This document shows, piece by piece, positions 1,775 to 34,974 of a stretch of 64,000 nt of DNA. The stretch spans positions 4,640,001 through 4,704,000 of the forward strand of contig CAVWLP010000002.1 in assembly GCA_963755915.1 (NCBI GenBank), written 5' to 3'. Made by a program: the position numbers and the translations under genes. How positions within the stretch are numbered: position 1 is the stretch's first letter; every line of letters starts with the position of its first letter. This DNA is from an uncultured Phycisphaerales bacterium. GTDB taxonomy: Bacteria > Planctomycetota > Phycisphaerae > Tepidisphaerales > Tepidisphaeraceae. The notes beneath the pieces were generated by a model. It searched no databases, was not told the DNA's origin, and saw only the letters and a program-made list of their open reading frames with translations.

Positions 1775-2808
1775 ATGGGCAGATATGACCGCCAGGAAGT
1801 TCTGGACCTGATCGGGGCTCGGGGGCAATTGCGCCTCAAGGAATCGCGCGTTCTGATCGTTGGCTGTGGAGCGCTCGGATCGGTCTCAGCGGAATATCTG
1901 TGCGGGCGGGGGTCGGTTTTCTGCGGATCGTGGACCGGGATCTGGTGGAGCTGACCAATCTTCAGAGACAGACCCTATTTGATGAGAAAGATGCGGTCGA
2001 GCAGATCCCAAAAGCGGCGGCCGCCGCGCGGCGACTGGGGCAAATCAATCGCGAGATCAAGATCGAGCCGATCGTGGCCGACGCGAATGCCGCAAATGTC
2101 GAGGGCTGGGCAGATGTCGATGTCATCGTCGATGGAACGGACAATGTGGCGACAAGATATTTGCTGAACGACGTCGCAGTGAAGCACAAGATTCCTTGGG
2201 TTTATGGCGGATGCGTGGGGGTGGAGGGCAGGGTATGGGGAATTTGGCCAGGAAAGACGGCTTGTTTGCAGTGTCTGTTTCCACAGCCACCGAGCTCGGC
2301 GGAGATGGCAACGTGCGACACGGCCGGAGTGCTCGGTCCCGCGGCGGGGATTGTCGGGGCGATGCAGGCGGCGATTGCCATTCGGTTCCTGGTGGAAGGT
2401 TCCCCCGGCGAAGGCAATGAAAGTGGGATGATTTGTCTCGACGCATGGACGGCCAGTTTTCGGCGGATGGAGTCGGCGGCGAAGCCGAGAGAGGATTGTT
2501 TGTGCTGTGGAGCTGGAAATTTTCGATTCCTCTCGACGAAAGCCGAGGATTTCACTACAAACCTGTGCGGAAGGTGCGCCGTGCAGGTGGTTCGGTATGA
2601 GCCGGGACAAGCGATCGATCTTCCGGCGACGGCGCGGCGATGGGAGAAGATTGGAACGGTGGGAGAGTCAGCGTGGTTTGTGAAATGCCGGTTGCATGAG
2701 CCGGCTGGAATTGATCTGACGCTATTTGCCGATGGGCGGCTGATCGTCCATGGGACAAACGAGCCGATGCGAGCGAAGTCGCTTTATGCAAGATTTGTTG
2801 GAAGCTAG
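1775..2808 (+). CDS. ThiF/MoeB-family adenylyltransferase (E1-like), no fused rhodanese; frameshift near 1900
   Basis: RYDRQ, GCGALGS nucleotide loop, DRDLVELTNLQRQ, DGTDN, CLQC and CLCC Zn motifs, TCDTAG cysteine. Confidence 0.9.
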
Positions 2809-2863
2809 AGTTACGATCGACGTTTGATATTTTCCTACTTTCCCCTAGTATTTGTAGGAGTTT

Positions 2864-3826: not shown

Positions 3827-3828
3827 CC

Positions 3829-4267
3829 ATGACCCTGATCCTGAGCAAAGCACAGATCGCGCTGATCGAGCGGGAGGGCGTGGAGGCATATCCGAACGAA
3901 TGCTGCGGCGCGCTCCTGGGGAAGGACATATCCGGATCGAGCGCACGGCGAGTGGTTTCGGAAGTCAGGCCGCTCAGGAATTCCTTTGAAAGCGGCGAGC
4001 AGTTTCACCGGTTTTCCCTGGATGCGCGACCTGATGGAGCTGGAAAAGACGGCGACGCTGGCGGGGCTGGTGGTGCTGGGATTTTATCATAGCCATCCGG
4101 ATCATCCGGCAAAGCCGAGCAAGACGGATTTGAAAAGCGCGTGGCCTTTTTACAGTTACGTAATCGTGTCGATCGCCAAAGGAAAGCCGGAGGAGCTGAC
4201 GAGCTGGCAACTGGACGAGGCCACCGAAGAATTCAAACCGGAAACGATCGAGAGGAGCGCGACATGA
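3829..4267 (+). CDS. Mov34/MPN/JAMM metallopeptidase (Mec-like); frameshift near 4025
   Basis: AYPNECCGALLG in one frame, GFYHSHPDHPAKPSKTD (JAMM HxH...D) in the next. Confidence 0.88.
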
Positions 4268-5145
4268 GCGATGATTATAAACATCCCGAAATGCTCGTGA
4301 GCACAGCGTGGGTGGCGGAACACGCGGGCGACGCGAACGTGAAAGTCGTGGAAGTGGACGTTGATACGGGCGCCTATGAGAAGGGGCACATCCGCAATGC
4401 CATCGGCTGGAACTGGCAAACGGATTTGAACGACCGCGTGCGGCGGGACGTGATCGACCCACGCAGTTTCGCCGAATTGAACCGCGCGGCGGGCGTGCGG
4501 CCCGAGGATACGCTGATTTTTTACGGCGATAACAACAACTGGTTCGCCGCGTGGGCGCTGTGGCAGTTTAAATATCACGGACACAAAGATGCGCGGCTGA
4601 TGAACGGCGGGAGAAAGAAGTGGGAACTGGAAAAGCGCGAGCTGGTGACCGATCGGACCTCATTCCCCCGCAGCAACTATCCCGTTCCCACAACCGATGA
4701 ATCCATCCGCGCGTATCGCGCAGAAGTTGATTCGACGCTGAACAAGAAGCAGGTAAACCTCGTGGACGTACGATCTCCCGATGAGTTTTCCGGAAAGATC
4801 ATCGCGCCGCCGGGGATGACAGAGACGGCGCAGCGCGGCGGACATATTCCCGGAGCCAAGAGCGTTCCCTGGGCAAAAGCCGTGAACGAGGACGGGAGCT
4901 TTAAGAACTCGGGAGATTTGAAAAAGCTTTATACCGATGCCGGGGTCAATTTTTCGAAGCCGACCATCACGTATTGCCGGATTGGAGAGCGGTCGAGCCA
5001 TACGTGGTTTGTGCTGAAGTACCTGCTTGGAGTTGATAACGTGAAGAACTACGATGGGAGCTGGACGGAATGGGGCAATTTGATTGGGGCTCCGATCGAA
5101 ACCGGTGAGGCGGCGACGGCGCTTCCCAATGTGAAGTGCGAATGA
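4264..5145 (+). CDS. Tandem-domain rhodanese / thiosulfate sulfurtransferase
   Basis: [16 protein letters not shown], active loop [18 protein letters not shown]. Confidence 0.93.
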
Positions 5146-5155
5146 TGAGGAAATT

Positions 5156-6115
5156 ATGGCACTGAAACCACAAGGACGGATTTTCAACGATATCACCGAA
5201 ACCATAGGCGGAACGCCGCTCGTCCGCCTCAATCGGTTGATACCTAAGGATCAGGCGACCGTATTGGTCAAATGCGAGTTCTTCAATCCGCTGTCCAGCG
5301 TCAAAGACCGTATCGGCGTCGCGATGATCGACGCGGCGGAGAAGGCAGGGAAGGTTAACAAGGATACGGTGATTGTTGAGCCGACCAGCGGGAATACCGG
5401 GATTGCGCTGGCGTTTGTTTGTGCCGTGCGCGGGTACAAGTTGATTTTGACGATGCCGCAGAGCATGAGCATCGAACGGCGGCGGCTGCTGAAGGCGCTG
5501 GGGGCGCAGGTGGAGTTGACGCCGGCGGAAGACGGGATGCGCGGGGCGATTGACCGGGCGGAAACGATCTTGAAGGAGAACAAGAACAGCTTCATGCCGC
5601 AGCAGTTCAATAATGAGGCGAACCCGGAGATTCACCGCAAGACGACCGCGGAGGAGATCTGGCAGGACACCGAGGGGAAGGTGGATATTCTCGTTGCCGG
5701 CGTGGGGACGGGCGGGACGATTACCGGGGTTTCGGAAGTGATCAAGCCGCGCAAGCCCAGCTTCAAGGCGATCGCGGTGGAACCGGTTTCCAGCCCGGTG
5801 ATTACGCAGACTTTGAATCATCAGACGGTGAAGCCCGGCCGGCACAAGATCCAGGGGATCGGGGCGGGGTTTGTCCCGAATAATTTGCATACCAATATTG
5901 TGGATGAAGTGATTCAGATCACGGATGACGAGGCGTTCGCCTGGGCGCGAAGGCTCGCGAAAGAGGAAGGGATTTTCGGGGGGATCAGTTCGGGGGGAAA
6001 CGTAGCGGCGGCGGCAAAGGTGGCGGCGCGGCCTGAAAATAAGGGGAAATTGATCGTCACCATCATGTGCAGTTTCGGCGAGCGATACCTCAGCACGCCC
6101 CTATTTGAGGAATGA
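5156..6115 (+). CDS. cysK: Cysteine synthase A
   Basis: [46 protein letters not shown]. Confidence 0.95.
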
Positions 6116-6116
6116 A

Positions 6117-6728
6117 ATGGCTGAACAGAAAGCGACGAACGTAACGTGGCACGAAGGGTCCGTTAGCCGGGATGAGCGGCAGAAGCTCCTGAACCAGAAA
6201 GGCGTGACGATCTGGATGACCGGGCTCTCCGCCTCGGGCAAGAGCACAATCGCGTGCATCCTCGAGCAGATGCTGCTGCATAAAAAGAAGCACGCGTATC
6301 GGCTCGATGGCGACAACATCCGCATGGGATTGAACAAGAACCTCGGATTCTCGGCGGAGGACCGGGCGGAGAATATTCGTCGCATCGGCGAAGTGGCGAA
6401 GCTGTTTACGGATGCGGGGGCGATCGCGATCACCAGCTTCATTAGCCCGTACCGGAAGGATCGAGATGCGGTGCGCGCGAGCCTGAAGCCGGGGGAGTTT
6501 ATCGAGGTCTATGTGCATGTTTCGCTTGCGGAGGCGGAAAAGCGCGATCCAAAGGGATTGTATAAGAAGGCGCGGGCGGGGCAGATCAAGGGATTTACCG
6601 GGATTGATGATCCGTATGAGGCGCCGGAGAAGGCGGAGATCGTGATTGAGACCGAGAAGCATAAGCCCGGGGATGCCGCGAAACTGATCCTGGGATACCT
6701 GGAAGAGCGGGGGCATTTGAGCGCATGA
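6117..6728 (+). CDS. cysC: Adenylyl-sulfate kinase
   Basis: [13 protein letters not shown]-loop, [31 protein letters not shown]. Confidence 0.96.
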
Positions 6729-6822
6729 CTGAGCCGCGGAGATGGATTGATGAGTTGTCGTTATCGCATTTCGGTTCGTGCGCTGCTGTGAAGCAATTTC
6801 CCCGGAAACCGTTCGGAAAGAT

Positions 6823-7697
6823 ATGAGTAAGCAGTTCGTAGATCTTCACTGCCATTCAACGGCGTCGGACGGAACGCTGCCCCCTGCGCAGGTGATGCGC
6901 CTCGCGGTGGAGCGGGGCCTTTCGGCCCTGGCGCTGACCGACCACGACACCGTGGCGGGAATCGAAGAAGCCACAACGGAGGCCCGGAAGCTGGGGATCG
7001 ATTTTATTTCCGGGATCGAAATCAGCGCCGAGTATCCCCATCCGGGCACGATGCATCTGCTTGGCTATGGGGTCGATCCGGCCCGCCCGCGCTGCGCGAT
7101 CTCACCAAGACACTGCTCGAGGGGCGAGACAACCGCAATCCCAAGATCATCGCCAAGCTGCAGGAGCTGGGCGTAGATATTGCGATGGAGGAACTGACTG
7201 CCGAGGCGGGCGGGAAGGTGCTGGGCCGGCCCCATATCGCGGCGATTCTGCATCGGAAGGGATACGTCTCTTCGATCAAGCAGGCGTTCGATAAATATCT
7301 TGCCCCTGGCGGACTGGCATATTTCGATAAGGAGCGGCTGACCCCCAAGCAGGCGGTGGGCATGATTTTGGAATCCGGGGGAATTCCGGTTTTGGCGCAT
7401 CCCATTCAACTGCGCTATCAGAACGACGCCCAGCTTGAGCGGATCGTAAAAGACCTCATCGACCTGGGGCTGCGGGGAATCGAGGTTTTGCACAGCGATC
7501 ACGATGCGGCAATGGTGGAAAAATATTCGGCGCTGGCCCAGCGCTATGGCCTGCTCAAGACAGGCGGAAGCGATTTTCACGGCACGAACAAGGCGGCGAT
7601 TGATCTGGGAAATGCCAATGGACGCAAGATTCCGCGGGAATTTTTTGATGCGCTAGTCCAGGCGAAGCAGCCGCAGGCGGTGGCGAATGCAAAGTGA
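6823..7697 (+). CDS. PHP-domain phosphoesterase (TrpH/YciV-like); frameshift near 7085
   Basis: DLHCHSTASDG, LTDHDT, GIEIS, GRPHIA, VLAHP, TGGSDFHG. Confidence 0.9.
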
Positions 7698-8432
7698 GAC
7701 GATCGCCCAACTCGACCTGCCGGCCGTGAACCAGATGATGGCGGGGAGCAATGCCGCGCACATCATTGAATGGACGGCGGCGCAGTTTGGGGATGACGTG
7801 GTAATGTCGTCGTCCTTTGGGGCCGATTCGGTCGTGCTGCTGGACATGGTGCGGCGGGTGAAGCCGGGGATCAAAATTGTTTTCGTGAATACCGGATTTC
7901 TGTTTCCGGAAACACATGCCTATATGGAGCAGCTTCGGCATAAGCTGAATCTGAACGTCTGGATATATCGCACGCGGAACGATCCGCTGACCTACTTGCG
8001 GACGGCAGGCGAGGAGAATCCGAGCTGGCGGAAAGATATTGATGCCTGCTGCGCGGCCAACAAGAATGAGCCGTTTGAAAGAGCGATGAAGGAGCTCTCG
8101 CCAAAAGCGTGGCTGCGCGGAATTCGTCGGGACCAGGCGAAGACGCGCCGGGCACGCAGTATGTCGAGTGGTCGCAGCGGTATCAGTGCTACGCGGTTTC
8201 GCCGCTGCTGAACTGGACGTCGCGAGATTTCCATGAGTATGTGAAGAAGCACGATCTCCCGCGGCATCCGCTCTGGGAGAAGGGGTACGTGTCGATCGGC
8301 TGCAATCCGCTAAGCTGCACGCGTCCCGTCGGCGAGGGCGAGGACCCCCGCTCCGGGAGATGGGCCGGGCAGGATAAGATCGAGTGCGGGATCAATGTAG
8401 ACCGGAATTCGCTCGATTCGGCGAATCTTTGA
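7687..8432 (+). CDS. cysH: APS/PAPS reductase; frameshift near 8155
   Basis: SSSFG, NTGFLFPET, ACC, GIRRDQ, then PLLNWT, GYVSIGC...CT, RSGRW, KIECG. Confidence 0.9.
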
Positions 8433-8554: not shown

Positions 8555-9278
8555 ATGAAATCCAAAATGATGACATTGAATGCGCGGTGGTTGGTGCTGG
8601 CGCTTTTGCTGCCGATGGGGTGCAGCGCGACGATTGAGAAGCAAGGGACGGGCGATGTGGTGGGGTCTTCGGCAACGACGCAGCCGGAGGGTTTGGGGGT
8701 TCCTGGCGCCGAAGCCAAGCTTGGTGGGACCGAGACAATCGTGTTTTTGCGCCACGGGGAGAAGCCGCGTCATGGGCTGGGGCAAATCACGCCGCAAGGG
8801 CTTAACCGGGCGATTGCTTTGAGCACGGTGCTTCCGGAAAAGTTTGGCAAGCCGGATTTTATTTTCGCCGGACCCGTCGCAGAAAGTCGAGCATGAGGAT
8901 GGCTCACAGTTTTATGTCAGGCCATTGGCGACCATCGAGCCGACGGCGATAGCGCTGGGAATGCCGGTGCAAACGCCGTTTGGGTATCGCCAGATCGATC
9001 AGCTTGACGAGGAGCTGACGAAGCCGAAGTATGCGAATGCGATTATTTTCGTGGCCTGGGAACACGGGCGTGAGGCGGAAGCGGCGGCGAACCTCGTCGA
9101 GATGTTCGGCGGGAACAGGTCGGATGTGCCGCCCTGGGCTGGGGATGATTATGACAGCTTGTATGTGGTGAGGATCACGCGGCCGATCGATAAGCCCCCC
9201 ACCGTGACATTCACGCACGAGCATGAAGGGCTGGATGGCGAAAGCAAAGAGATGCCGGTCCCTGCCGGGCGAAACTGA
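8555..9278 (+). CDS. Histidine-phosphatase-superfamily lipoprotein; frameshift near 8870
   Basis: Lipobox-like LPMGC, FLRHGEKP (RHG motif), RPLATIEP, VAWEH. Confidence 0.75.
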
Positions 9279-9389
9279 GCCCGGGTTCTGCAATAGAATC
9301 CTGCCTGGTGATTGTTAGACGTTCGATCCTCCGCTTCCAGTCTGCGGCGCCTAATCCATGCGCGCCATTTGTAAGACGTTGTCAATGTT

Positions 9390-10277
9390 TCACTTCACCT
9401 TGATCAACCCGAAAATCGATTCCGCCTGTTTCGCGGCAAACGCCGCAAATTCCAGGGGCGAGGCCAGCGCGATTTGCAGATTGCCGGAATTGGGATCGCT
9501 CGGCAACCCGCATTGCGCCAGCACGCGGTTCGCCGCCTGAACCTGGTGAAACTGGGCTTTGACCATTTCCCTGCCGATCATCGCCGCCTGGAGAAATTCT
9601 CCGAGCCGGGCAAACAGGGCGCGGTATGACTCGGGTTTTTCCTGGGCCGCCTTCAGAAAGGCGGCAAACTCTGATCCCGCGGCCGGCCCCACCTGGATCA
9701 CGGCAAGGCCGGATGCGTGCGAAAACTCGAAGCATCGATATTGGCCGCCGAGCTTTTCCACCAGCCGGTAGACCCCAAAGCCTTCCGAGCGATCCGCCGA
9801 ATCGTGCAGCAGCACGACGCCGCGCTGCGACATCTTCGGCAAATAGGATTCGAAATCATGCCGCACGGCTTCGTAGTCGTGCGCTCCGTCGATATGAAGC
9901 AAATCGATGGATTGATCCTCGAAACTCCGGCGTGCCGAGTCGAAATCCGCCTGCATCAGCTCCGAAAAGCTCGAAAACCGCGCATCATGAAACGCCCGAA
10001 ACTCCGTCAAAACCTGCGGCCCCAGCCTGCCGACATGCGCATCCCCGGCCCACGTATCCACCGCGGTGCAGCGCGTCTGAAGCCCCAGGATCTGAACGGC
10101 GTGGCAAAACGCGGAATATGAAACCCCCGAATGCGTCCCCAGTTCCACGAACCTGGGCGGCCTAAGCAGTTCCATCGCCAGGTAGGCAAACGGAACATGC
10201 CGAATCCAGGCCGAATCCGCGGTCAGCCGCTCCGGCAGCGTGTAAATGATCGAATAATCGAGCGGATCGAATGCCAT
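9390..10277 (-). CDS. Class I SAM-dependent methyltransferase (Methyltransf_24-like)
   Basis: VELGTHSGVS, AVDTWAGD, IDLLHIDGAHDYEAV, VLLHD. Confidence 0.85.
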   Translation of the reverse strand: MAFDPLDYSIIYTLPERLTADSAWIRHVPFAYLAMELLRPPRFVELGTHSGVSYSAFCHAVQILGLQTRCTAVDTWAGDAHVGRLGPQVLTEFRAFHDARFSSFSELMQADFDSARRSFEDQSIDLLHIDGAHDYEAVRHDFESYLPKMSQRGVVLLHDSADRSEGFGVYRLVEKLGGQYRCFEFSHASGLAVIQVGPAAGSEFAAFLKAAQEKPESYRALFARLGEFLQAAMIGREMVKAQFHQVQAANRVLAQCGLPSDPNSGNLQIALASPLEFAAFAAKQAESIFGLIKVK

Positions 10278-10350
10278 TGTGGCCGCCGCAGTTCGGCCAG
10301 CCAGTATATGCGCCCCCGTTTGTTAACGCGAAAGCGCAAGACTCCGCCCT

Positions 10351-10472
10351 GGAACAAAAGCAGGGCGATCGCATGCTCTCTCTTACCCCCTCGCCCGGTA
10401 CTCCGGGAGAGGGTTGGGGTGAGGGCAGTGAAAGAATTTCGGGCCATATGCGATCGCCCGGGAACAAAAGCA
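10351..10472. mobile_element. MITE-like miniature element: direct repeats flanking terminal inverted repeats around a REP-like palindrome
   Basis: ggaacaaaagca at 10351-10362 and 10461-10472; gggcgatcgcat (10363-10374) / atgcgatcgccc (10448-10459); core ccctcgcccggtactccgggagaggg...gtgagggc. Confidence 0.6.
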
Positions 10473-10473
10473 A

Positions 10474-10502
10474 GACATCACTGATCGCCGATCAGTGATG
10501 TC
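10474..10502 (-). terminator. Probable intrinsic terminator of the upstream CTERM gene
   Basis: Perfect 14-bp inverted repeat gacatcactgatcg-c-cgatcagtgatgtc, followed on the minus strand by ttgcttttgtt. Confidence 0.65.
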
Positions 10503-10549
10503 CCATATGCCTTTCAATTTTCGCCGCAACCCGCCAGGGGTCTGGCGGC

Positions 10550-11266
10550 TCAAACAGTGCGGAGACGTTTCCGGGCAATCCCGATAAAACCCAGCCCCGA
10601 CAAAACCATAAAGCTCTGCCAGGCAGCGCTGGGAAGCGGAACAGCATTGGGAGGACCGCTTGCGGGATCCGGGATTTCCTTCAGATCGAAGCCTGTCCCG
10701 GCCGCATCGATGATCAGGTTATCGGGGTTGGTCGCGGTCGGGTTTCCGTTGTTGTCGTAATCAATCGTGCCGCTGCCCCACGATGAAGTGGTTCCGGAAG
10801 CTTGCGAGCCTCCGCCGTAGGTCAGGTTGTTTCCCCCGGCGTTCAGTGACACAGTCGTAAAAAAGCCGGCCGGCGGGGCAAACGTGCTGCTTACCGAGGG
10901 AAACGTCGCCGAGCTGCTAAGCAGGAACTGGAAGCCATCCCATGATGTGCCGGAATCGTTCGTGATCGATTCCGAATTGAAATCGATGACATCCGTCGTC
11001 GTCGAGACCGGCTGGAACGAAACCAGAAATCCCTGGTTCGGGGCGGTGAAGTCAGCGGTCTTGTCGATGACCAGGGGAGTGCTCGCGGTAGCGGGAGTAA
11101 CCGTCAGCGTCACTCCCGACTGGGCCGTGATGTTCCATCCGTCTACCACCTGAGATGTCCCGCCATCAATTGTGATTGTCGCGGCAGAAGCTGTCTGCCA
11201 GGCGCCCAAGCCCGCAAGCGCCGTGCACGCGGCGACCAGGGCGATCTTTTTGCTTCCATTGCACAT
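10550..11266 (-). CDS. Secreted protein with VPLPA/PEP-CTERM-type sorting signal
   Basis: Signal peptide ending TASA; C-terminal VPLPSAAW + TM helix + RKRLR. Confidence 0.85.
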   Translation of the reverse strand: MCNGSKKIALVAACTALAGLGAWQTASAATITIDGGTSQVVDGWNITAQSGVTLTVTPATASTPLVIDKTADFTAPNQGFLVSFQPVSTTTDVIDFNSESITNDSGTSWDGFQFLLSSSATFPSVSSTFAPPAGFFTTVSLNAGGNNLTYGGGSQASGTTSSWGSGTIDYDNNGNPTATNPDNLIIDAAGTGFDLKEIPDPASGPPNAVPLPSAAWQSFMVLSGLGFIGIARKRLRTV

Positions 11267-11514
11267 GAGAACCTCCCAAACAAATAAAACAACTCAAAAC
11301 GTCAACGCGCGATGCCTTGCATCGGACAGGCAATCTATAGATCGCCCTTTCAAGCCCGCGACGGATAATTTTTCGCGGCCGGTAATTCTTTGCCCTATGC
11401 GATGAAACTGTGCGATGAATTCGCATCGAACCGATCTCATCGCCGGGTCCGATAAGTTCGTCGAATCAGCGCCAAGTAGCGGCACGCTGCCGCCTCGGAT
11501 ATAACCACGACCCT

Positions 11515-11984
11515 ATGGAGCGAACGCTAATTATCCTGAAACCCGACGCCGTTCAGCGCGGGCTGTGTGGCCAAATCATCGACCGCTTCGAAAAAAAAGG
11601 CCTGCAAATTGTCGGCCTCAAGTTCATGAAGATTCCCCAGACCTTGGCGGAGACCCATTACGGCCCCCACAAAGGCAAGCCGTTCTATGATGGACTCGTA
11701 AAGTTCATGACATCCTCGCCAGTGATTGTGCTGGCGCTTTACGGCAAGGATGCGATCGGCGTCGCCCGCAAGATGATGGGCGCCACCTTCGGTTCAAAAG
11801 CAGAGCCCGGCACGATCCGCGGCGATTTTGGGGTGAGCAACTCCTTCAACCTGATTCACGGCTCCGATTCGCCGGAGAGCGCCAGCGCGAGCTCGATCTA
11901 TTCTTCAAGCGCGAGGAACTGCTTGAATGGAAGCCGGCGCTGGAAATGTGGGTCTACGATTACGGCAAGGGGAAGCCGGAGTAA
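11515..11984 (+). CDS. ndk: Nucleoside-diphosphate kinase; frameshift near 11885
   Basis: MERTLIILKPDAVQRGL, PGTIRGDF, NLIHGSDS; shifted frame continues RELDLFFKREELLEW...GKPE* (TAA 11982-11984). Confidence 0.95.
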
Positions 11985-11995
11985 GAGACGAGAGC

Positions 11996-13366
11996 TCACC
12001 ACGGAGAACTCTTCCGCCGGCGTTTGAGCAGACCCACGCTTCCAAATGAGAGCAGCGAGAGCGTTCCTGGTTCCGGCACGGCCGGCGCGAAGGCGACGCC
12101 TTTGAACAGTTCGCCCCCCTTGCCGCCGGTGTTTCCCGCGGCGGATTCGATTTCCGTGAAGCTTTCCCCTGCTCCAGTGGTCGCATCCAGAGAATCGCTG
12201 ATGGAGAACAGGCCATCCGGGTCTCCATTTCCGCTCGTGTAAGAGACCGCGAAAAGATCGACCTGGGCGCTGGCCCCGGACCCGACCACTTCGCCCGCGA
12301 GCGCTTCAAATCCCGTCTGGTCGCTCGAAGTCCAGGCCGAGCTGGTTGGCGTGAGCGTATACTGAAGACTCCAGGTATTGCCGTTGAACGTCCATTTCTG
12401 GATACCCCCGTCGCCAACGTCGCCTCCCTTGGGATCGCCCGTATCGGCGACGTAGAGCGTGTTGGCATTTGCAAAGTAGAAGCCTTCCGGGCTGTAAAAG
12501 ACTTCACTGCCTCCCGATTTGCCATTGTTCGCGGGGATGATTCGGGTTGGGGTTGAAGAGGTGGTGGGTAGCCCGTTGTATTTCCAGATGCCGGTATCGG
12601 TGCCGGAGCCTGTGTCTATGGAGAAATAGAGATTTCCGTTGTAGGCCGTCACGGTCCGCGTGTCCTGGAGGTTGTAGATTCCGGTTGGGGAGCCGCTCAC
12701 GGTCGTGTTCAGGCCGACGTTCCCGTAGAAGACTCCCTGGTCGGAATCGTTTCCGTCCCCCTGGCCGGAGATATAAAAGGTCGAGCCAGTGGAGGAATAA
12801 ACTGAACGGGGATTGTTGGTGTTGTAAACATCATTCAGCTCGGTGGAGGAGTTCACGTTCCCATTGGCGTCAATGAGTGCAGCCACGCGCGGGACGTTGG
12901 TGTCGGTGGACTGGGCGAGGGAGACGGTGTTGTGGCTGAAGGGGGTCCCGGTCGTGAAAGTGGTGCCGTTTTCGGAGTTGGTGGAAGCATCGATTCCTGC
13001 CGCCGCTGCCGAGGCGCTATAGCCTGCGATGGTGAGATATTGGCCGTTGCCGGAGAGCTGAAGGGTTCCTTCGGAGGAGGAGCCGTACTGGCCCACGATG
13101 CCGAAGTTATTGCCAGAGTTTGATGTCGGGAGCGTGTCGGTGAATACCGGCGATTCGTTGAGGGTGACAGAGTTATTGGTGACGGCGAATTCGAGAAGGC
13201 TGATGGGGGTTGAAGCGCCCTGGGTGAGATTGCTGCCCACGCTGCCGTAGGTGCTGACGACGAGATCGCCGGGGGTAAAGGTAACAGCGCGCACGCGACC
13301 CGCCGAGGCGGCAAAAAGAACCATTGCCAGTATGGCCCGGCAAGCCGGCTTCCAGGATTGAGGCAT
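11996..13366 (-). CDS. PEP-CTERM surface protein, Ser/Thr/Gly-rich beta-fold
   Basis: Signal peptide; C-terminal VPEPGTLSLLSFGSVGLLKRRRK. Confidence 0.9.
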   Translation of the reverse strand: MPQSWKPACRAILAMVLFAASAGRVRAVTFTPGDLVVSTYGSVGSNLTQGASTPISLLEFAVTNNSVTLNESPVFTDTLPTSNSGNNFGIVGQYGSSSEGTLQLSGNGQYLTIAGYSASAAAAGIDASTNSENGTTFTTGTPFSHNTVSLAQSTDTNVPRVAALIDANGNVNSSTELNDVYNTNNPRSVYSSTGSTFYISGQGDGNDSDQGVFYGNVGLNTTVSGSPTGIYNLQDTRTVTAYNGNLYFSIDTGSGTDTGIWKYNGLPTTSSTPTRIIPANNGKSGGSEVFYSPEGFYFANANTLYVADTGDPKGGDVGDGGIQKWTFNGNTWSLQYTLTPTSSAWTSSDQTGFEALAGEVVGSGASAQVDLFAVSYTSGNGDPDGLFSISDSLDATTGAGESFTEIESAAGNTGGKGGELFKGVAFAPAVPEPGTLSLLSFGSVGLLKRRRKSSPW

Positions 13367-13598
13367 ATTCTCCCTTTACAACGTCAAAGCCCCCAAGTCC
13401 GCTCCTTCACGCAAGCTTCATGAGGTTAGATTGATACTGGCTTATGTTCTAAATTTCGTTAGCGAGTGGTTAAGGTTTGGTTATGGCGGCAGGGAATTTC
13501 CCGCGCAATAGGTCGGTCCCCCGCCGCGGGCACTCTCGATTCGATGTGCCGCGAAGCACGAAACGGGACTGGGATTTCGGTTTCTACTTTTGCCAACC

Positions 13599-14200
13599 CT
13601 ACCGCGCCACGATCGGCCGTTTGCAAACGACTTCATGGCTTTCCGTGCTGTACGTCAACTCGCCGTCGCCTGCCCACACGCTCCAGATCGGCTTGTCATC
13701 GCTGGCGACAAAATCGTCCATTAACGTGTAAACCCCGTTGGTTTCGCGAAACACCAGATATCGGCTCTTTCCAACCTGCGGGATTTCAATGCCATACATT
13801 GATAGATCGCTCTGCCGTTGCGCCCCCAAGTCCGCCAAGCCATAGCCCGGGAACATGATTTCGAAAATTCGCTTAGTGAGCTCATCGCGACTTTGGTAAC
13901 GGATCTTCACCGGCGCCTGCGACACCAATTGCTCCACCAACTGCGACTGGCTTGGATCGATGTTGTTCGGGTCGTCCTTATACTCCTCGTAAGTCGAATA
14001 ATCGCGCGTCAGCTTGATCGAATGCCCCAGGTATTCAATCGATCCCGGAGCAAATTGCGAAACGCTCGGAGTTCGCGCGTTATAACGCTCGACCTCCCGA
14101 TACATCGGCCAACCCACGATCACAACGGTGATCAGAGTCGCCGCACCTCGCCACCATGTTGCCGAATATTGATTTGGCGTAAACGCCCTCCTCTCAGGCC
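13599..14200 (-). CDS. Hypothetical protein with one TM segment (start uncertain)
   Basis: Long ORF with WWRGAATLITVVIVGW followed by a soluble domain; no family recognised. Confidence 0.45.
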
Positions 14201-24129: not shown

Positions 24130-25255
24130 TTGGATCAATCTGAGGTGGATGCGCTCCTGGCTGCCGTGGATACGGGAGCCGTGGCCACGAAAGAAGCGCT
24201 CCCAACCGTCTTCGGTGCCAAGGGGAAAACCCAACTGGAAGTGCAGGTCTATGACTTCAAGCGCCCCGAGCGCGTCAGCAAAGATCAGATGCGCGCCCTT
24301 GAGGCTCTGCACGAAGGGTTCGGGCGAAACTTTGGGGCGGCCATTTCCGGGTATCTGCGGACGATTATCGAAGTCAACGTCGCGAATATCGAGCAGCTCA
24401 CTTACAGCGAGTTTATCCATACGCTGCCCAATCCGACCTGTTTTAATCTGCTCAAGGCGGAGCAGCTCGATGGGCAGCTTTGCCTGGAGATCAGCCCGCT
24501 GATTATTTATCCGATTATCGATCGGCTCCTGGGCGGGAGCAACGCCGAGCTTTTCATTCCGCAGCGGCCGCTGACGCAGATCGAGCAGCGGCTGGTGCAG
24601 AGGATAACGGATCGGGCGACGCATCATTTGTCGGAGGCCTGGACCAATCTCACGCCGGTAACTTTTCGCGTGGAGGATTTTGAGAGCAATCCGCAGTTGG
24701 TGCAGATCGTTCCGCCGAACGAGACGGTGGTGGTGGTGGGATTTGAGCTGAAGATGGGCAGCCGGGCAGGGACAATGGCGCTGTGCATTCCGTACAACGT
24801 GATTGAGCCGATCATGTCGATGCTGGCGACGCAGAACTGGTTCAGCTACCAGCGGAAGGGATCGCAGGATGATCATCTTCGCCGGCTGACGCGGAACGTG
24901 AGCACGGCGCCAGTGGAAATGCGGGTTTTCCTGGCACAAACGTCGATTCGGCTGAATGATCTGATGAACCTCCAAGTGGGGGATTTGATCACGACGGATA
25001 AAAAATCGCACGAGGATGCGGCGATCCAGGTTGAGGGGAAAATGAAATTTGCGGCGCAGGCCGGGCAATATCGAGGCAAGCGGGCGATTCGGCTGACGCG
25101 AATAATCCGGGAGGCGGAGGATTCATCCGCGACAGATAAAACGGAAGGCGCTCGACTTAGCGCCGCTGGTGCCGCCAGCGCAAGCGGCGGCGGCGCAAGC
25201 CCCAACACCTCCTGCTGCGCCTGCGGCTGGGACGCCGAAGGGCGGGGCGAAGTGA
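24130..25255 (+). CDS. fliM: Flagellar motor switch protein FliM; frameshift near 25155
   Basis: LDQSEVDALL, YDFKRPERVSKDQMRALE, EQLTYSEF, ESNPQLVQI, SpoA domain; shifted frame gives tail APLVPPAQAAAAQAPTPPAAPAAGTPKGGAK* (TGA 25253-25255). Confidence 0.9.
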
Positions 25256-26001
25256 GCCAGGCGGCGCCAGCATCAAACCCGACCCTGGATTCGGCGGGGA
25301 AATGGCTTTCGAATTATCTGAAGCAGTCGGAGTTGCCGCTGCACAGCCTGGCGTTTCTTCTGCCGGCGATGGTGCTGTTTGAAGTGGGGATCAGTTTCAA
25401 TGGGACTGATCCAATTGCATTTCGGATGATGCAGATTTTTTTCCAGCAACTGGGCGCCACCGGGCGGTTCGTGCCGGTACTCTCGGTGGTGGGGATTCTG
25501 CTCACCTGGCATATCAGTCGCAAGGATCCGTGGGTCATCAAAATGGAAACGCTGTGGGGGATGCTGCTGGAGAGCATGATGCTGGCAGTGCCGCTGCTGG
25601 CGCTGGGGATTGCGGTAGCGCGCTGGCACGTTCACACGCCATTGTCAGCGCGGTCGATGCAGTGGAGCGACAACGCGGTGCTGGCGCTGGGGGCAGGCGT
25701 GTATGAGGAATTCGTTTTTCGCCTGGGGCTGATGACCTTGATTTCGATACTGGCGGCGGATGTGTTAAAGATGCGTAAACCTGCTGCGAACCTACTAATG
25801 GTGTTAATCTCGGCAATCTTGTTCTCTCTCTACCATTACTTGGGAACGGAGAGCTTTCAGATGCAAAGCTTTGTGTTTCGAACAGGGGCTGGTCTGTATT
25901 TTGCGATATTGTTTCTGACCCGCGGATTTGGTGTAACAGCAGGCTGTCACATAGCTTATGATATAACCATCATCACGCTACAGGCATTTGCCCCACATTA
26001 A
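25252..26001 (+). CDS. CPBP (Abi/CAAX) intramembrane glutamic endopeptidase
   Basis: GTG start overlapping the fliM TGA; AGVYEEFVFR, FSLYHY, RGFGVTAGCH. Confidence 0.85.
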   Translation: MSQAAPASNPTLDSAGKWLSNYLKQSELPLHSLAFLLPAMVLFEVGISFNGTDPIAFRMMQIFFQQLGATGRFVPVLSVVGILLTWHISRKDPWVIKMETLWGMLLESMMLAVPLLALGIAVARWHVHTPLSARSMQWSDNAVLALGAGVYEEFVFRLGLMTLISILAADVLKMRKPAANLLMVLISAILFSLYHYLGTESFQMQSFVFRTGAGLYFAILFLTRGFGVTAGCHIAYDITIITLQAFAPH

Positions 26002-26044: not shown

Positions 26045-26285
26045 GATCGGCGATTTAGAGGCTGGCATCCGTTTGTGACTGGTTGCCGGCGCCTAAATCG
26101 ATCCGCCCGATGTGGGCGGATCATGCCACGTATGGCGGATCAGAAAGGCTGGCAGGACGCCAAAGGCTTTTCGTGAAACTCTCGCCTATGGCGAGCATGT
26201 CTATCCGCACAGGTGTAAGGCCCAGACAGTTTGGACTTCGTTCCTTCTGTCACAATGTGAAGGGGTTTCCCTTCTAGAAAGAAGC

Positions 26286-26846
26286 ATGGACGCTATGAGC
26301 AACCGAACCAAGCAACGTCGAATGGGTGGACTCACCCTACTTCTTTACCAGCGCACCCTGCATCCGGAACTGTTCAAGATTCTGGCTTCGGAAAAGGTCA
26401 ACCGCCGCGCCTATGAAGCGGATATCTGGTTGGTTGAAGGGGGTCATGTCATTAGCCTGACGGCTGACAAGAACACACTCACCGAAGTCATTGTCAACAA
26501 GAGCGAGCCGATGACCGACCGGAGTCTTCTTCTTTCCACCCCCTGCCGGGGCGAGAAATATCACGAAGACACCTACGGCAACATCCGCTACATGATCAGC
26601 ACCCAGGAAGAGCAACTGACGCAGACCCTGTACGATGCGACGAAGCACGAGATTTCCAGCTACGCCGCGAAGCGCGAGCTGATGACGGCCGATGTGCCGC
26701 CCCGCCAGGAGACTGGTGGCTCGCTCAGCGTGCTCGACATTGAGCGCCGCAGCCACGAGCTGCTGGTCCAGAGCTTCCACCTCTTCGATGAGAACCAGAT
26801 GGTCATCAAGACCCAGGCGATCATCGAAGTGGTAAAGTCGGCATAG
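26286..26846 (+). CDS. DUF2617-family protein
   Basis: LLLYQRTLHPELF...ADIWLVEGGHVI...VQSFHLFDENQMVIKTQAIIE. Confidence 0.7.
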   Translation: MDAMSNRTKQRRMGGLTLLLYQRTLHPELFKILASEKVNRRAYEADIWLVEGGHVISLTADKNTLTEVIVNKSEPMTDRSLLLSTPCRGEKYHEDTYGNIRYMISTQEEQLTQTLYDATKHEISSYAAKRELMTADVPPRQETGGSLSVLDIERRSHELLVQSFHLFDENQMVIKTQAIIEVVKSA

Positions 26847-26875
26847 ACTGCGCAGAACCAAACAGAACGCCCAAG

Positions 26876-26901
26876 CCCAGGCCCTAAAGCCTGGGTTTTT
26901 T
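26876..26901 (+). terminator. Intrinsic terminator
   Basis: cccaggc-cctaaa-gcctggg followed by tttttt. Confidence 0.85.
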
Positions 26902-26994: not shown

Positions 26995-27264
26995 ATGGGG
27001 ATGGTTACGGTTGAAGTCTGGGACGCCACTGGCAACAAACGGCAGAAGGTTGAGATGCCGGATGATGTGCCGGTGAACCGTTTATTGGCGGTGCTGCTGG
27101 AGAAGATGAAATTTCCACAGTTCGCGCCGGACGGGCAGCCGTTGAGTTACAAATTCCATCACCGCGCTTCCGGGAAGCAATTGCTCGACGAGCAAACGCT
27201 GGCGCAGGTGGGCGTGAAGGAGGGGGATGTTTTGCGGCTTCAGCCGGAGATCACCGCGGGATGA
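26995..27264 (+). CDS. EsaB/YukD-family ubiquitin-like (beta-grasp) protein ending in ...EITAG
   Basis: 89 aa; VEMPDDVPVNRLL, LLDEQTLAQVGVKEGDVLRL matches the ubiquitin-fold C-terminal pattern; GGGAG RBS. Confidence 0.88.
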   Translation: MGMVTVEVWDATGNKRQKVEMPDDVPVNRLLAVLLEKMKFPQFAPDGQPLSYKFHHRASGKQLLDEQTLAQVGVKEGDVLRLQPEITAG

Positions 27265-27309
27265 GAAGTTTCGGGGAGAAGCTGGCGAAGCAGTTCGGGC
27301 GATAGATCA

Positions 27310-28639
27310 ATGGAAGATGAGAAAATTCAGATTTCGTGGAACGACCTGAAGACGGCCAAGGTCGAGAAGCACGTCCGGCAGCAGCAGGCGCTGGGCCGGA
27401 ACCGCAAATATGCGCAGATGACGGCGGAGGATCTGCCCGATGCGCAGAAGTCATCCGGTTCGCTTTGGTACAACCCGATTTTTTTGCTGGCGGTATTTGG
27501 GTTCGTGGGTGGGATGCTGGCCTGGGGCGGCAGTGCGCTGCTGCACCTGTGCCGGATCGGCAGCGCGACGCCGACGAGGCAATGGCTTCGATTCAGGATA
27601 TCCGGCAACTGGTGCGGACAACGCCCAATGGGCAGGGCATCACCCAGGCCCAGGCGGATGCCGCGATCGGGATGATCGTCGCCAACGCGGGCGACAATAC
27701 CTATTTGAAGATTGAGCTTCAGCCGGAGTTTACTCCGCAGGAGAAGCAGGAGCGAATCGCCGCGCTTCAGCATGATGATTACTGGAAGAACCTGATCACC
27801 CACATCATCAGCTTTGGCCTGTGCGGGATTTTCATTTCGATCAGTTTGAGCGCGGCTGAGCCCATCATCGACCGTAACCAGCATGCGGCGGTGATTAACG
27901 GATCGGTTGGGGCGGCGCTGGGGCTTGCGGGAGGCCTGGCGGCGTCGCTGCTGGTGGACCGGATTTACAGCCTGATCGGCGGGGCAGATCATGGTTTGCT
28001 GCGGGAATATCTGGGACAAACGCTGAGCTGGTGCGTGCTGGGGTGTTTTCTTTCGCTCGCCCCAGGCGTGATAGCGATGAATCGGAAACGCCTGGTGATC
28101 GGTTTGGCCGGAGGTGCGTTGGGCGGTGCGCTGGGAGGAATGCTGATGGTTCCGCTGACCCAGATTTCGCAGAGCCCGGAATTCGCACGGCTGGCTGCTC
28201 TGTGCTGCATCGGCGCTGTGAGCGGGGCTGCGACCGGACTTCTCGAGCAGGCGGCGCGGACCGGGTGGCTGAAAGTAGTGGCGGGTGTGATCGCAGGCAA
28301 ACAGTTTATCCTTTATCGAAATCCCACGTTTATCGGCTCGCGCCCGACTGTCAGATTTATCTCTTCCGCGATCCCGCGGTGGGACGACGCCATGCGACGA
28401 TTCATCTGCTGAAAGGGAGAATTGAGATCGAGGACCTTCCGCTGGGGGGGCAGACGACGATCAATGGGAAGCCGATCACGAGAAGCCGGCTTCAGCATGG
28501 CGATCAGATCGGCATCGGTGGGACGACTTTTCTGTATCAGGAGAAATCGCGGCAGACGAGCAACGGCGCGAAACCACGGCCGCCGTCGAAGGCCGGCCAA
28601 CTGCTTGAAAAGGTTCGGGCGAGCCTAGGGGGGGAATGA
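27310..28639 (+). CDS. Polytopic Gly-rich membrane protein with C-terminal FHA-like domain; frameshifts near 27550 and 28340
   Basis: Multiple GxxxG-rich TM helices, then GWLKVVAGVIAGKQFILY...IGS.PDCQIYLFRDPAVGRRHA...ING...LQHGDQIGIGGTTF. Confidence 0.82.
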
Positions 28640-28648
28640 GAAAGGGGT

Positions 28649-28698
28649 GACGCCGCGTAAACGCGGCCGCTAAACAACGCGGGGGTTCACGCGGCGTC
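28649..28698. terminator. Nested inverted repeats between convergent genes
   Basis: gacgccgcgt (28649-28658) / acgcggcgtc (28689-28698), plus inner gccgcgt-aa-acgcggc. Confidence 0.5.
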
Positions 28699-32400: not shown

Positions 32401-32974
32401 TCAGGCAGGCCTGTCGTTGGAAGTGTGCTCTTCTTCGGAGCTTTCTTCCTCGAAATCGAATTCCAGTGCGCCGGAGCCGGAGGGATGCCCACCATCGGAG
32501 ACGGCGTCGAAATTGATGTCATCCGTCGCCGGCGCTTCGGCTGGCGCTGCGGCTCCTTCGCCCGCGTCAGCCTGATCGCCTGAGGCGGGGTGATCGTCCG
32601 CGAGAAAATCATCCGCCTCGCCGGTGGCGCCTTCAGCAGGTGCTGCTGCCGGTTGCATGTCTTCATCCGCCGGCACGCCGTCGATCTGAACCATAAAAGT
32701 AACCGGCCCGATCTGAACGGTGTCCCCCTGCGCCAAGGGTCGCCTCGCGGACGCGCTGGCCGTTGTGAAAAGTGCCGTTGGAGCTGCCGAGGTCTTCAAG
32801 GCGGATCGCGTCGCCGTCACGGATGAGCCGGCAATGCTTTCGTGAGACTTCCCCCAGAGGAATGCGAAGGTCGCAATCTTCACGTCGTCCGACGACGGTC
32901 ATATCGCGGACGATGGAAAAACTGCGTCGTTCGCCGTCGGCGCGGAACATGACAAGGACAACCTGCATCGGCAA
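32401..32974 (-). CDS. Canonical FHA-domain protein with acidic tail; frameshift near 32740
   Basis: VGR...VSRKH...DLGSSNGT...NG, with the pThr-binding residues retained. Confidence 0.88.
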
Positions 32975-33122
32975 ATACCTCGAGGGGCGAATACCGGAGA
33001 TTACGCTATTACTTTAGTGTCTGAGGGGGGTTTGGGCAACTTTAAATTGGGGGATGTGGAGGTGGGTTATTTCGGGCGCGAGTTTCGCGTTAACCGTGAA
33101 AAAACGTAGGATTTCGGCGGTG

Positions 33123-33472: not shown

Positions 33473-34974
33473 GTGCTCGCCACCGTACATTCCTTCGTCC
33501 TGACAGGAATCGACGCGATCCTTTGTGAAGTCGAGGCGGATGTCAGTCAGCGCGGCCTTTCCAGAACGATCATCGTCGGCCTCGCCCAGACCGCCGTGAA
33601 GGAATCGATCGAGCGCGTGCGCCGCGCGATGATCAATGCCGGCTTTCCGTTCCCCGGCCATGGAAAGCTGATCAATCTCGCACCGGCGGATGTGAAGAAG
33701 GAGGGCCCTAGCCTCGATTTGCCGATCGCGGTTGGACTGCTGCGCGCGAGTGGGTCGATTGAGACCGATGTGCATAAACAGTTCGTGATCGCGGGCGAGC
33801 TCGCGCTCGACGGCCGGCTGCGGAAAATCAAAGGCGCCCTTTCCCTGGCGATGCTCGCCAAAGAGAAAAAGCTGCGGGGGGTAATTTTGCCCGCGGAAAA
33901 TGCCCGCGAGGCGGCGGTTGTCGAGGGGGTTGAAGTGTATCCGATCTCGCATCTTTCGCAGGCTGTTTCGTTTTTGAACGAGCGATTGCCGATCGAGGCG
34001 TATGAGTTGGATGGCGAGGCCTACACGGCTTCGGCGATATCGCCTGATCTGGATTTCGCCGATGTGCGCGGGCAGGAGGCGGTGAAGCGCGCGATTACCG
34101 TTGCCGCGGCTGGAAGTCATAACCTGCTCATGATCGGCCCCCCCGGCACTGGCAAGACAATGCTCGCCCAGCGCATGGCCGGCGTTCTGCCTATGCTGTC
34201 GCGCAGCGAGTCGCTGGAGACCACGCGGATTTATTCCGCACTCGGCCTGCTCCCCGAAGGCGTCGCGCTCATGGACGAACGCCCGGTGCGAATGCCCCAC
34301 CATTCCGCCACCGCCCAGGCCCTCATCGGCGGCGGAACCATCCCCCGCCCCGGCGAAGTTTCCCTGGCACATCACGGAATTCTATTCCTCGACGAGCTGC
34401 CCGAATTTGCCCGCTATGTCCTCGAGACACTTCGGCAGCCCCTGGAAAGCGGCGAGGTAACCATCTCGCGCGCCTATGGCTCGATGCGCTTCCCCGCCCG
34501 TTTCATGATGGTCGCCGCGATGAATCCGACCGCACGGGGATTCCAGTCGGATAACCCCCGCGCCCGCGACCGCTATCTCGACAAACTCAGCGGCCCGCTC
34601 CTCGATCGCATCGATATGCACGTCGAAGTCCCGGCCGTTCCCTATCCGGAACTAACCGGCAAAAACCGCGGCACCGACACCCAGACAATGCGCACCCGCG
34701 TACAGGGGCGCGAGAGATCCAGCGCAAGCGATTCGGAAATGCCATGCTCAATGCCCACATGGGATCAAAGCAGCTCAAATCCTTCTGCGAGCTTTCCGCC
34801 GGGTGCCTGATGCTGATGAAGCAGGCGATGAATGAGCTGGGGCTGAGCGCGCGTGCGTATGACAAGGTGAGGCGCGTGGGGCGGACGATCGCTGATCTGG
34901 AGCAAGCCGACGAGATTCAGGAGCATCACCTGGCGGAGGCGATTCAGTATCGGTTGTTGGATAGGAGGGGGTAA
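33473..34974 (+). CDS. comM: YifB/ComM Mg-chelatase-like AAA+ ATPase; frameshift near 34705
   Basis: INLAPADVKKEG, GELALDG, GPPGTGKT, GEVSLAHHGILFLDELPEF, SGPLLDRID, LSARAYDKV. Confidence 0.93.

Follow-up and report, generated by a model that had tools for sequence, protein, structure and literature searches.

Gene content of the locus

We describe a pair of adjacent genes in a stretch of 64,000 nucleotides (the window) from the genome of an uncultured soil bacterium of the Phycisphaerales, family Tepidisphaeraceae (GenBank assembly GCA_963755915.1, contig CAVWLP010000002.1, here C2; the window is C2:4640001-4704000). The first gene encodes a ubiquitin-like protein (Ubl) and the second, referred to as gene 2, a membrane protein with an FHA domain (Table 1). 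An earlier note on this DNA, made from the letters without database searches, had read the pair as either a dispersed, membrane-linked ubiquitination system or a membrane module resembling a type VII secretion system (T7SS), and had described it as a self-contained unit bounded by a terminator upstream and a hairpin downstream. The upstream boundary is retained: the stem-loop before the Ubl gene carries a T-run and closes the preceding DUF2617 gene (26112-26846; Pfam E 9e-8). Gene 2 starts 45 bases downstream of the Ubl gene, and no terminator-like site was found between the two. The downstream boundary is not retained, as the inverted repeat behind gene 2 (-31.7 kcal/mol) has a z of only -1.52, with 16 of 200 shuffles folding as well, lacks a T-run and is absent from the list of terminator-like sites in the window.

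Table 1. Features of the Ubl locus, of the sulfur cluster in the same window and of the distant enzyme cluster. Positions are those of the window, or of locus L036 (the enzyme cluster) where so marked.
Feature	Position	Strand	Description
Ubl gene (gene 1)	26995-27264	+	89-amino-acid YukD-family beta-grasp protein; open reading frame (ORF) and Pfam
Gene 2	27310-28639	+	Polytopic membrane protein, C-terminal FHA; single-base gaps after 27550 and 28339
FHA domain of gene 2	28263-28546	+	PF00498; without the phosphothreonine-binding Arg, Ser and Asn
Terminator-like stem-loop and T-run	26873-26898	+	Stem of 10 pairs (6 G-C) with a T-rich tail
G+C-rich inverted repeat behind gene 2, weak	28650-28697	+	Not a convincing terminator
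E1-like gene of the sulfur cluster	~1775-2808		ThiF 2.1e-55; frame-broken near 1890
JAB-like (JAMM) gene of the sulfur cluster	~3826-4092		Family search
Cognate E1	L036 6424-7683		ThiF 2.5e-53; 56-65% identical to E1s of intact operons
Cognate JAB	L036 7795-8484		JAB 5.3e-10; H-x-H...S-x-x-D motif readable
FHA/RING membrane protein	L036 ~8716-9759		Prok-RING_1 25.5 bits
Zinc-ribbon and E2 protein	L036 9756-10478		UQ_con 37.4 bits (cut-off 27); His-Pro-Asn and Cys readable; 52-56% identical

The ubiquitin-like protein

The Ubl matches the Pfam family YukD (PF08817) with E 8.2e-13 (49.4 bits, cut-off 27) over profile positions 5-76 of 76, and its orthologue in a related genome with an intact operon (G016) likewise exceeds the gathering cut-off. 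Matches to ubiquitin-type families in Pfam are sub-threshold and weaker than that to YukD, the NCBIfam model for the N-terminus of EccD is matched weakly (E 2.4e-4), and a Pfam scan whose list extends to E = 1 has no match to the ThiS family. Searched against solved structures, the Ubl profile finds only a 24-residue stretch resembling the G-K-Q-L...T-L region of ubiquitin, with weak single-domain E-values; the low whole-protein E-values in this search are due to polyubiquitin repeats. The protein ends in ...QPEITAG, and the stop codon falls directly after the Gly. Both the YukD/EsaB-type assignment and the exposed Gly had been read correctly in the earlier note.

The C-terminus is conserved. 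A scan with the Ubl alignment over one genome per species found 247 relatives, from which the best 80 loci were kept, mostly of Tepidisphaeraceae and other Phycisphaerae, with some from Pirellulaceae, Gemmataceae, Verrucomicrobiota and Victivallales. All 80 retain ...EITAG. The stop follows immediately in 42 of them, a form in which the tag can be made mature; 37 carry a tail of 2 to >30 residues, and one runs off the stretch read. The Ubl profile was also searched against 1.84 billion representative proteins and matched 981 clusters at E <= 0.001 (385 at <= 1e-10 and 62 at <= 1e-30). Among the best 150 of these clusters, 111 matches are full-length and every one has Ala-Gly at the end of the domain, followed by 0 residues in 21, 1-10 in 24, 11-40 in 32 and >40 in 34. 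The other 39 do not reach the profile end (7 halt at the protein end and 32 diverge earlier). A terminal Gly that is not conserved had been named beforehand as a finding that would speak against ubiquitin-like use, and this objection fails because Ala-Gly is present in all 111 full-length matches. The sequences thus point to a Ubl whose conserved C-terminal Gly would be available for adenylation.

Several of the extensions of >40 residues start with double zinc-ribbon motifs or transmembrane (TM) segments. Because they begin in this way, the tag seems to be made in some lineages as a fusion placed before a zinc-ribbon or membrane protein, although some of these extensions may be artefacts of gene calling.

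The Ubl is also the best conserved component of the operon described below. In non-split loci its median identity is 82%, compared with 68% for the E1, 57% for the E2, 51% for the JAB peptidase, 45% for gene 2 and 32% for the FHA/RING protein. Identities are 85-93% within the genus and 71-91% across Planctomycetota, Verrucomicrobiota and Victivallales. The window copy is the only Ubl of this family that tblastn identified in its own genome.

Gene order in relatives

In other genera of the family the Ubl is the first gene of a fixed row. It is followed by a ThiF-type activating enzyme (E1) of ~400 amino acids, a JAB peptidase with a C-terminal TM helix, gene 2, a protein with a canonical FHA domain, zinc ribbons, a C4HC3 RING-like finger and TM helices (the FHA/RING protein), and a conjugating enzyme (E2) composed of a zinc ribbon and a UBC fold with His-Pro-Asn (HPN) and Cys. 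Pfam recognizes the intact G016 operon accordingly: ThiF 5.8e-52, JAB 1.8e-12, FHA in gene 2 (4.2e-9), FHA in the FHA/RING protein (6.8e-21, plus a weak Prok-RING_1 match) and UQ_con in the E2 (35.7 bits, cut-off 27).

The E1 directly follows the Ubl in 65 of the 80 loci, and in 55 of these the order is Ubl-E1-JAB-gene 2, mostly continuing with the FHA/RING protein and the E2. Nine of the other ten loci end within ~3.1 kb, and in one, gene 2 is missing from a downstream flank of 10 kb. A split form, in which the Ubl lies directly before gene 2 as it does in the window, accounts for 10 of the 80 loci. The remaining five (L054, L060, L075, L081 and L105) hold a lone Ubl, and the other five operon parts were not found near it in the flanks read (up to 10 kb downstream). 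In one genome (G013) the E2 is on a different contig from the other parts.

The components also occur together. Orthologues of gene 2 were identified in 20 of 41 related genomes, all of one bacterial family, the E2 in 20 (plus one weak paralogue) and the Ubl in 19; the three are found together in the same 19 genomes. The Ubl was not found in G018, a genome in 1270 contigs that has gene 2 and the E2, and the 16 genomes from other families yielded no hit to any of the three. As the genomes are related and hence not independent of one another, the co-occurrence describes a pattern and is no statistical test. Judged by gene order, a conserved Ubl-E1-JAB-TM/FHA-FHA/RING-E2 cluster has the Ubl and the TM-FHA protein among its fixed parts.

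Enzymes in the genome of the window

We searched the window's genome by tblastn with the enzymes of two intact operons and identified one enzyme cluster (C2:1,800,423-1,804,477) that encodes an E1, a JAB peptidase, an FHA/RING membrane protein and an E2 (Table 1, locus L036). It lies ~2.86 Mb from the Ubl and gene 2 (C2:4.667 Mb) on the same 5.0-Mb contig, and contains neither a Ubl nor gene 2. The E2 is the only UQ_con match in the genome (C2:1804082). Thus, by Pfam and by the translations, a cognate ThiF-type E1, a UBC-fold E2 with HPN and Cys, and a JAB peptidase with the JAMM motif are all present. The FHA/RING translation shows the pattern C-x2-C...C-x2-C...H-x2-C...C...C. No NCBIfam model names the Ubl, gene 2 or the E2.

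The separation is a feature of the genus. Ubl and E2 are on different contigs or far apart in all 12 genus genomes with hits, the window's included. A split is also seen in a second genus, on the basis of a single genome (G014) that is flagged as unpublished.

A second, paralogous Ubl system is encoded elsewhere in the same genome (L037, C2:1652000-1668000; positions that follow are within L037). It comprises an E1 (6233-7615; ThiF 1.2e-15), an E2-like protein with HPN and Cys but no Pfam match (7563-8168), a weakly YukD-like Ubl that ends ...IDAG-stop (~9101-9385) and a JAB protein (9586-10614). Next come an AAA ATPase of the proteasome type that has OB domains (10521-11747) and a protein of the Pup-ligase family (12297-14006; 4.5e-92).

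The earlier note had pointed to another E1-like and another JAMM gene as candidate partners. Both exist, 24 kb upstream of the Ubl in the window, and the E1-like gene lies close to a CysM-like synthase. If these enzymes served the Ubl, it would be a sulfur carrier of the ThiS/MoaD/CysO type and gene 2 would be unrelated to it; the proximity of a ThiF-type E1, a CysM-like synthase and a JAB-like gene at 1775-4092 fits such a role, as does the absence of any ThiS-family carrier gene from the window. However, three proper ThiS-family genes are present elsewhere in the genome, and the Ubl itself has no ThiS match. In relatives the Ubl is never beside sulfur enzymes; it is beside its own E1, E2 and RING protein, and the cognate E1 of L036 is 56-65% identical to those of intact operons. 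We therefore consider a sulfur-carrier role for this Ubl scarcely credible. The surroundings are those of cysteine synthesis: the CysM-like synthase passes the NCBIfam cysKM model, a rhodanese and a cysK (which passes its model) are adjacent, and two further ORFs were named from their translations only as adenosine phosphosulfate kinase (cysC, 6105-6728) and phosphoadenosine phosphosulfate reductase (7687-8211). By its gene content, the 1775-4092 pair belongs to an ordinary sulfur-carrier setting and not to the partner set of the Ubl, whose cognate enzymes are 2.86 Mb away. The region 1775-8211 as a whole appears as a sulfur-assimilation cluster and includes a PHP-like ORF at 6778, also named from its translation only.

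Neither an E2 nor a WXG100 or FtsK gene was found in the window, as had been claimed before; a genome-wide profile search placed the matches to FtsK_SpoIIIE (C2:4140973, 2279216 and 601149) and to WXG100 (C2:2275134) outside it. These matches bear on the second of the two original readings, in which the Ubl binds the FHA domain non-covalently and works with the WXG100 protein and FtsK-type ATPase of the genome as a T7SS-like module. The Pfam family of the Ubl is YukD, and there is the weak EccD match; YukD is described as contacting and stabilizing YukB's FHA domains (PMC12637312). Further, the WXG100 gene (L118 5105-5371; 34.9 bits, cut-off 27.3) is ~3.3 kb upstream of an FtsK/SpoIIIE ATPase. 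However, this WXG100/ATPase locus is 2.39 Mb from the Ubl. Its ATPase occurs in 26 of the 41 relatives. Of the 22 searched genomes that yielded no Ubl, six (G006, G020, G021, G022, G031 and G037) have this ATPase. The gene that follows the Ubl in 65 of 80 loci is an E1 rather than a secretion gene, and an invariant Ala-Gly, often with a disposable tail, fits activation and processing but not a structural role. The gene contexts speak for conjugation over secretion as the probable function, and a T7SS-like module is very unlikely. In the WXG100/ATPase locus itself (L118, C2:2270000-2288000), the FtsK/SpoIIIE ATPase is in several frames, while it measures 1300-1400 amino acids in relatives.

The membrane protein and its FHA domain

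An intact orthologue of gene 2 (G010; 424 amino acids, ~70% identical) was folded using an alignment of 55 orthologues (predicted local distance difference test score, pLDDT, 84.4; predicted template-modelling score, pTM, 0.69). The model has an N-terminal helix, a first TM helix (TM1) at 55-77, a helical segment of ~80 residues, five more TM helices up to 315 and a beta-sandwich at 319-410. Six TM helices are thus predicted for the gene 2 product. Both termini would be cytoplasmic, because the N-terminus is positively charged and a K-N-R-K-R loop is present.

The beta-sandwich is an FHA domain. The corresponding piece of the window matches PF00498 with E 1.7e-11 (44.8 bits, cut-off 20.7), and the modelled domain superimposes on the FHA chain 6i2q_B (VIA Z 19.0, root-mean-square deviation 1.2 A over 97 residues; Foldseek E 1.4e-7). 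With the whole gene 2 model as the query, Foldseek and VIA returned matches to the FHA domain only. The Gly-rich TM helices and the FHA domain attributed to gene 2 in the earlier note are therefore sound, although that it spans three frames here had gone unnoticed.

FHA domains read phosphothreonine by means of a conserved Arg (in G-R), Ser (in S-x-x-H) and Asn (in N-G). For comparison, the gene 2 domain was aligned with three other FHA domains in which the Arg and Ser are retained. The window copy reads GS, GRRH and LGGQT, as previously stated, whereas the other FHA domain of the window (32663-32974, minus strand) reads GR, SRKH and SSNGT; G-R and S-R-x-H are kept both in that domain and in the FHA domain of the operon's RING protein. 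Among the 55 orthologues the Arg position holds no Arg (Ser in 49, Ala in 6), the Ser position holds Gly in 48, Ser in 5, Ala in 1 and Leu in 1, and the Asn position holds no Asn. H361, the structural His, and K330 are invariant (55/55). The description of this FHA as phospho-blind holds, because the phosphate-holding residues are lost in all or nearly all orthologues, and the domain is predicted to be unable to read phosphothreonine. For the same reason, the substitutions are a trait of the family and not the sequencing errors that had been allowed for as an explanation.

The invariant K330 raises the main rival to a docking function for this protein (see below). Gene 2 could be the main substrate of the system, its activity or turnover being set by attachment of the Ubl, e.g., to K330 at the start of the FHA domain. 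The residue lies within a strongly conserved stretch. In addition, the Ubl and gene 2 are still adjacent after the operon split (10 of 80 loci), as would be expected if tag and target were kept together because gene 2 is the substrate, and gene 2 is fixed in the cluster (55 of 65 loci with E1, most of the other ten ending too early to tell). On the other hand, an invariant Lys in a beta-strand can be a structural or contact residue, and modification of gene 2 is no more than an extrapolation from this conservation. A dedicated six-gene machine for a single substrate would be unusual, and the very high conservation of the tag suggests many partners. We regard gene 2 as an unlikely main substrate.

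The TM part was also folded alone (pLDDT 80.7). For TM2-TM5 the best structural matches have Z of 8.4, 8.1, 7.9 and 7.5 (6g2j_Y, 8esw_AM, 8e1m_A and 7cgp_A; root-mean-square deviation 3.5-11.4 A over 114-136 residues), values that are common for helical bundles and below the tool's caution line of Z ~13 for them. They are two accessory subunits of complex I, which we take to be members of the four-helix, Gly-rich Tim17/22/23-like fold, and chains of TIM23 and TIM22 translocase entries. Comparison to the ESM Atlas gave 0.75-0.77 to planctomycete clusters, below the level at which such scores have meaning. Co-folding of the Ubl with full-length gene 2 (the G010 pair) gave 0.28 and 0.29 against a mark of 0.32, without controls, and counts neither for nor against an interaction.

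A more specific role for the TM-FHA protein, as the dedicated membrane receptor of the tag or as a Derlin/Tim17-like conduit in a bacterial counterpart of endoplasmic-reticulum-associated degradation, is speculative and quite unlikely. If it were true, the C4HC3-type membrane RING protein, the HPN-type E2, the membrane JAB and the tag, whose conservation comes near that of ubiquitin, would label proteins of the membrane or envelope that are to be extracted or turned over, and the split in this genus would have isolated the Ubl and TM-FHA protein as the functional core pair. The FHA/RING protein would then resemble the membrane RING ligases of that eukaryotic pathway.

Integrity of the genes and quality of the assembly

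In the window, gene 2 spans three frames (27310 to ~27550, ~27552-28339 and ~28340-28639). Alignments to intact genus-mates show that one base is missing at each break. In contigs from soil metagenomes (Logan), an additional base stands after position 27550 (run X1) and after 28339 (in both X1 and X3); the contigs are of 1360 bases at depth 4.7 (X1) and 403 bases at depth 5.8 (X3), the runs are from one study, and the best-matching run may be the source sample itself. With both bases restored, gene 2 is a single frame of 443 codons. A 32-base segment (28644-28675) that joins different flanks in metagenome contigs was considered and dropped; its 22-base core occurs once in the window's own genome.

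The pair might instead be a decaying, non-working leftover of a broken operon, given that gene 2 is frame-broken twice in the window and that both the Ubl and gene 2 are frame-broken in G001, a close relative within the genus. Short-read contigs, however, close both breaks. The full-length frame of gene 2 is found in 9 of 11 genus loci (thus, intact in 9 of the 10 other genus genomes), and the exceptions are the window's genome (G000) and G001. The G001 break is ~20 bases upstream of the first break in the window, and because the two genomes break at different bases the events are independent. Both are few-contig assemblies of low completeness (3 contigs and 81% complete for G000, 5 contigs and 66% for G001) and have the appearance of long-read assemblies in which some single-base gaps remain. 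Genes nearby are also broken: those at 32407-32983 (the other FHA gene, 32401-32974 on the minus strand) and 33473-34968 (plus strand) each change frame once relative to intact genes of G010, as called by a crude gene caller, which fits frequent single-base gaps in the assembly. With gaps this frequent, broken genes should not be read as pseudogenes. The within-genus conservation of the Ubl and retention of the E2 in all 12 Ubl-positive genus genomes (the window's included) also argue against decay. The breaks in gene 2 are most likely assembly errors, and a non-working leftover is highly improbable.

Two observations on other genes of the window are recorded here. The gene at 33473-34968 is Mg-chelatase/ComM-like, named from its translation only. 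At 24130-26001, fliM (FliM and FliMN_C) and a CAAX/Rce1-like protease form one ORF of 623 amino acids, while in G009 they are separate genes (346 and 249 amino acids); the single ORF may be an assembly artefact or a real fusion.

A predicted membrane-associated conjugation system

We estimate a probability of roughly three in four that this genus has a eukaryote-like, membrane-associated conjugation system of the ubiquitin type, with its genes split over two loci, and that the two genes described here encode its tag and a scaffold or receptor subunit in the membrane. The first of the two original readings, a dispersed membrane-linked ubiquitination system, is thus right in kind, given the conserved cluster and the E1, JAB, RING and E2 genes in the same genome, but it had named the wrong partners.

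With family memberships, catalytic motifs, the gene order of relatives, co-occurrence and intactness as described above, the conjugation itself, the role of gene 2 and the targets can be laid out as a model. The Ubl would be made with its Ala-Gly end already exposed, adenylated and linked as a thioester by the ThiF-type E1 encoded at C2:1.80 Mb, and handed to the Cys of the HPN-type UBC-fold E2. The membrane-anchored protein with the FHA domain and C4HC3 RING-like finger would then help to attach it, on the cytoplasmic side of the membrane, to lysines of its targets, and the membrane-anchored JAB peptidase would take it off again. That tails are frequent is consistent with precursor maturation by the JAB, and in relatives with a tailed Ubl this peptidase may trim the precursor as well. 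Gene 2 is most likely a docking platform that works independently of phosphorylation; it would keep the machinery or its substrates at the membrane and be co-expressed with the tag.

Several points weigh against this interpretation. The YukD of Bacillus subtilis, for which the family is named, is reported not to be conjugated (PMC1779556). The operon breaks up in several ways, and the pairing of Ubl and gene 2 need therefore not mean a special bond between them. The Prok-RING_1 (PF14446) match of the FHA/RING protein is below its cut-off of 29.1 bits. In the enzyme cluster, the JAB gene and the start of the FHA/RING gene are also frame-broken in the assembly; these breaks are assumed to be assembly errors. 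The enzymes are 2.86 Mb away, which leaves co-regulation of the two loci conjectural, and no shared word of at least 8 bases was found upstream of the Ubl and of the E1. No RNA runs that carry the stretch are listed.

Comparison with known systems

The closest kind of system is that of the prokaryotic Ubl/E1/E2/RING (Prok-RING_1)/JAB neighbourhoods with YukD-like Ubls, which were reportedly predicted by Burroughs, Iyer and Aravind (Mol Biosyst 2011). Shared with these are a Ubl of the YukD family with Gly at its C-terminus, an E1 of the ThiF type, an E2 with a UBC fold, HPN and Cys, a JAB peptidase and a membrane protein with a C4HC3 RING-like finger, which were identified both in relatives and in the window's genome. 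The difference is in the arrangement: rather than in a single neighbourhood, the genes of this genus are at two places ~2.86 Mb apart, with the Ubl and TM-FHA genes at C2:4.667 Mb and the four enzyme genes at C2:1.800-1.804 Mb. The layout had been said to fit no known system; it is instead a split form of the layout predicted in the literature, and the locus is an ordinary member of a known, predicted system with a rearranged organization. Later articles refer to Burroughs 2011 for 'complete prokaryotic Ubl-conjugation' that includes JAB, E1 and an E3 ligase of the RING type (PMC7159879, PMC11601603). Full-text literature yielded no experimental study of this operon type, subscription papers being largely outside the search.

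Candidatus Caldiarchaeum subterraneum, whose ubiquitin (Ub) system is said to be soluble, is likewise a prokaryote that encodes a tag together with a full E1/E2/RING/JAB cascade. In the system described here the tag belongs to the YukD family, three components bear TM segments and two FHA domains are added. The archaeal operon (Ub, E1, E2, a small RING protein and an Rpn11-like JAB) is described as reconstituted in vitro (PMC5654768, PMC11354881), and its tag is named ubiquitin (PMC5654768).

The T7SSb of B. subtilis likewise has a YukD-family beta-grasp protein beside a membrane protein with FHA domains. In its core, YukD (EsaB) is bound to the FHA domains of YukB (EssC) (PMC12637312). Use of an FHA domain for protein docking instead of phospho-reading is a plausible parallel with YukB, and it gives a helpful hint as to the way in which an FHA domain and a beta-grasp protein might make contact. 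Unlike T7SSb, the locus has no ATPase, pseudokinase or WXG100 gene, the Ubl ends in an invariant Ala-Gly, and in relatives it sits with an E1 and an E2, whereas YukD is the protein reported not to be conjugated (PMC1779556).

The E1-E2-Ubl-deubiquitinase logic is shared with Bil (BilABCD), Bub and the Cap2/Cap3 proteins of the cyclic-oligonucleotide-based anti-phage signalling system (CBASS), which are described as anti-phage conjugation systems (PMC10557695, PMC11601596, PMC11354881). PADLOC found no match for the Ubl, gene 2, JAB, FHA/RING protein or E2; the adenylation domain of the E1 weakly resembles its E1-E2 and BilD models. BilB has a CEHH motif (PMC11354881), whereas the E2 described here has HPN and matches UQ_con, and a RING-like protein and membrane anchors are present.

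Eukaryote-like ubiquitination in bacteria is an active field. To our knowledge, the bacterial systems tested so far (Bil, CBASS Cap2 and Bub) are anti-phage modules without a RING protein. The system predicted here combines an E1, an HPN-type E2, a RING-like E3, a JAB peptidase and a highly conserved tag, with three of its parts in the membrane, and has as a fixed subunit a TM-FHA protein whose FHA domain is probably unable to read phosphothreonine. It tolerates a split into one unit of tag and TM-FHA protein and another of enzymes, which offers a natural two-plasmid design for reconstitution.

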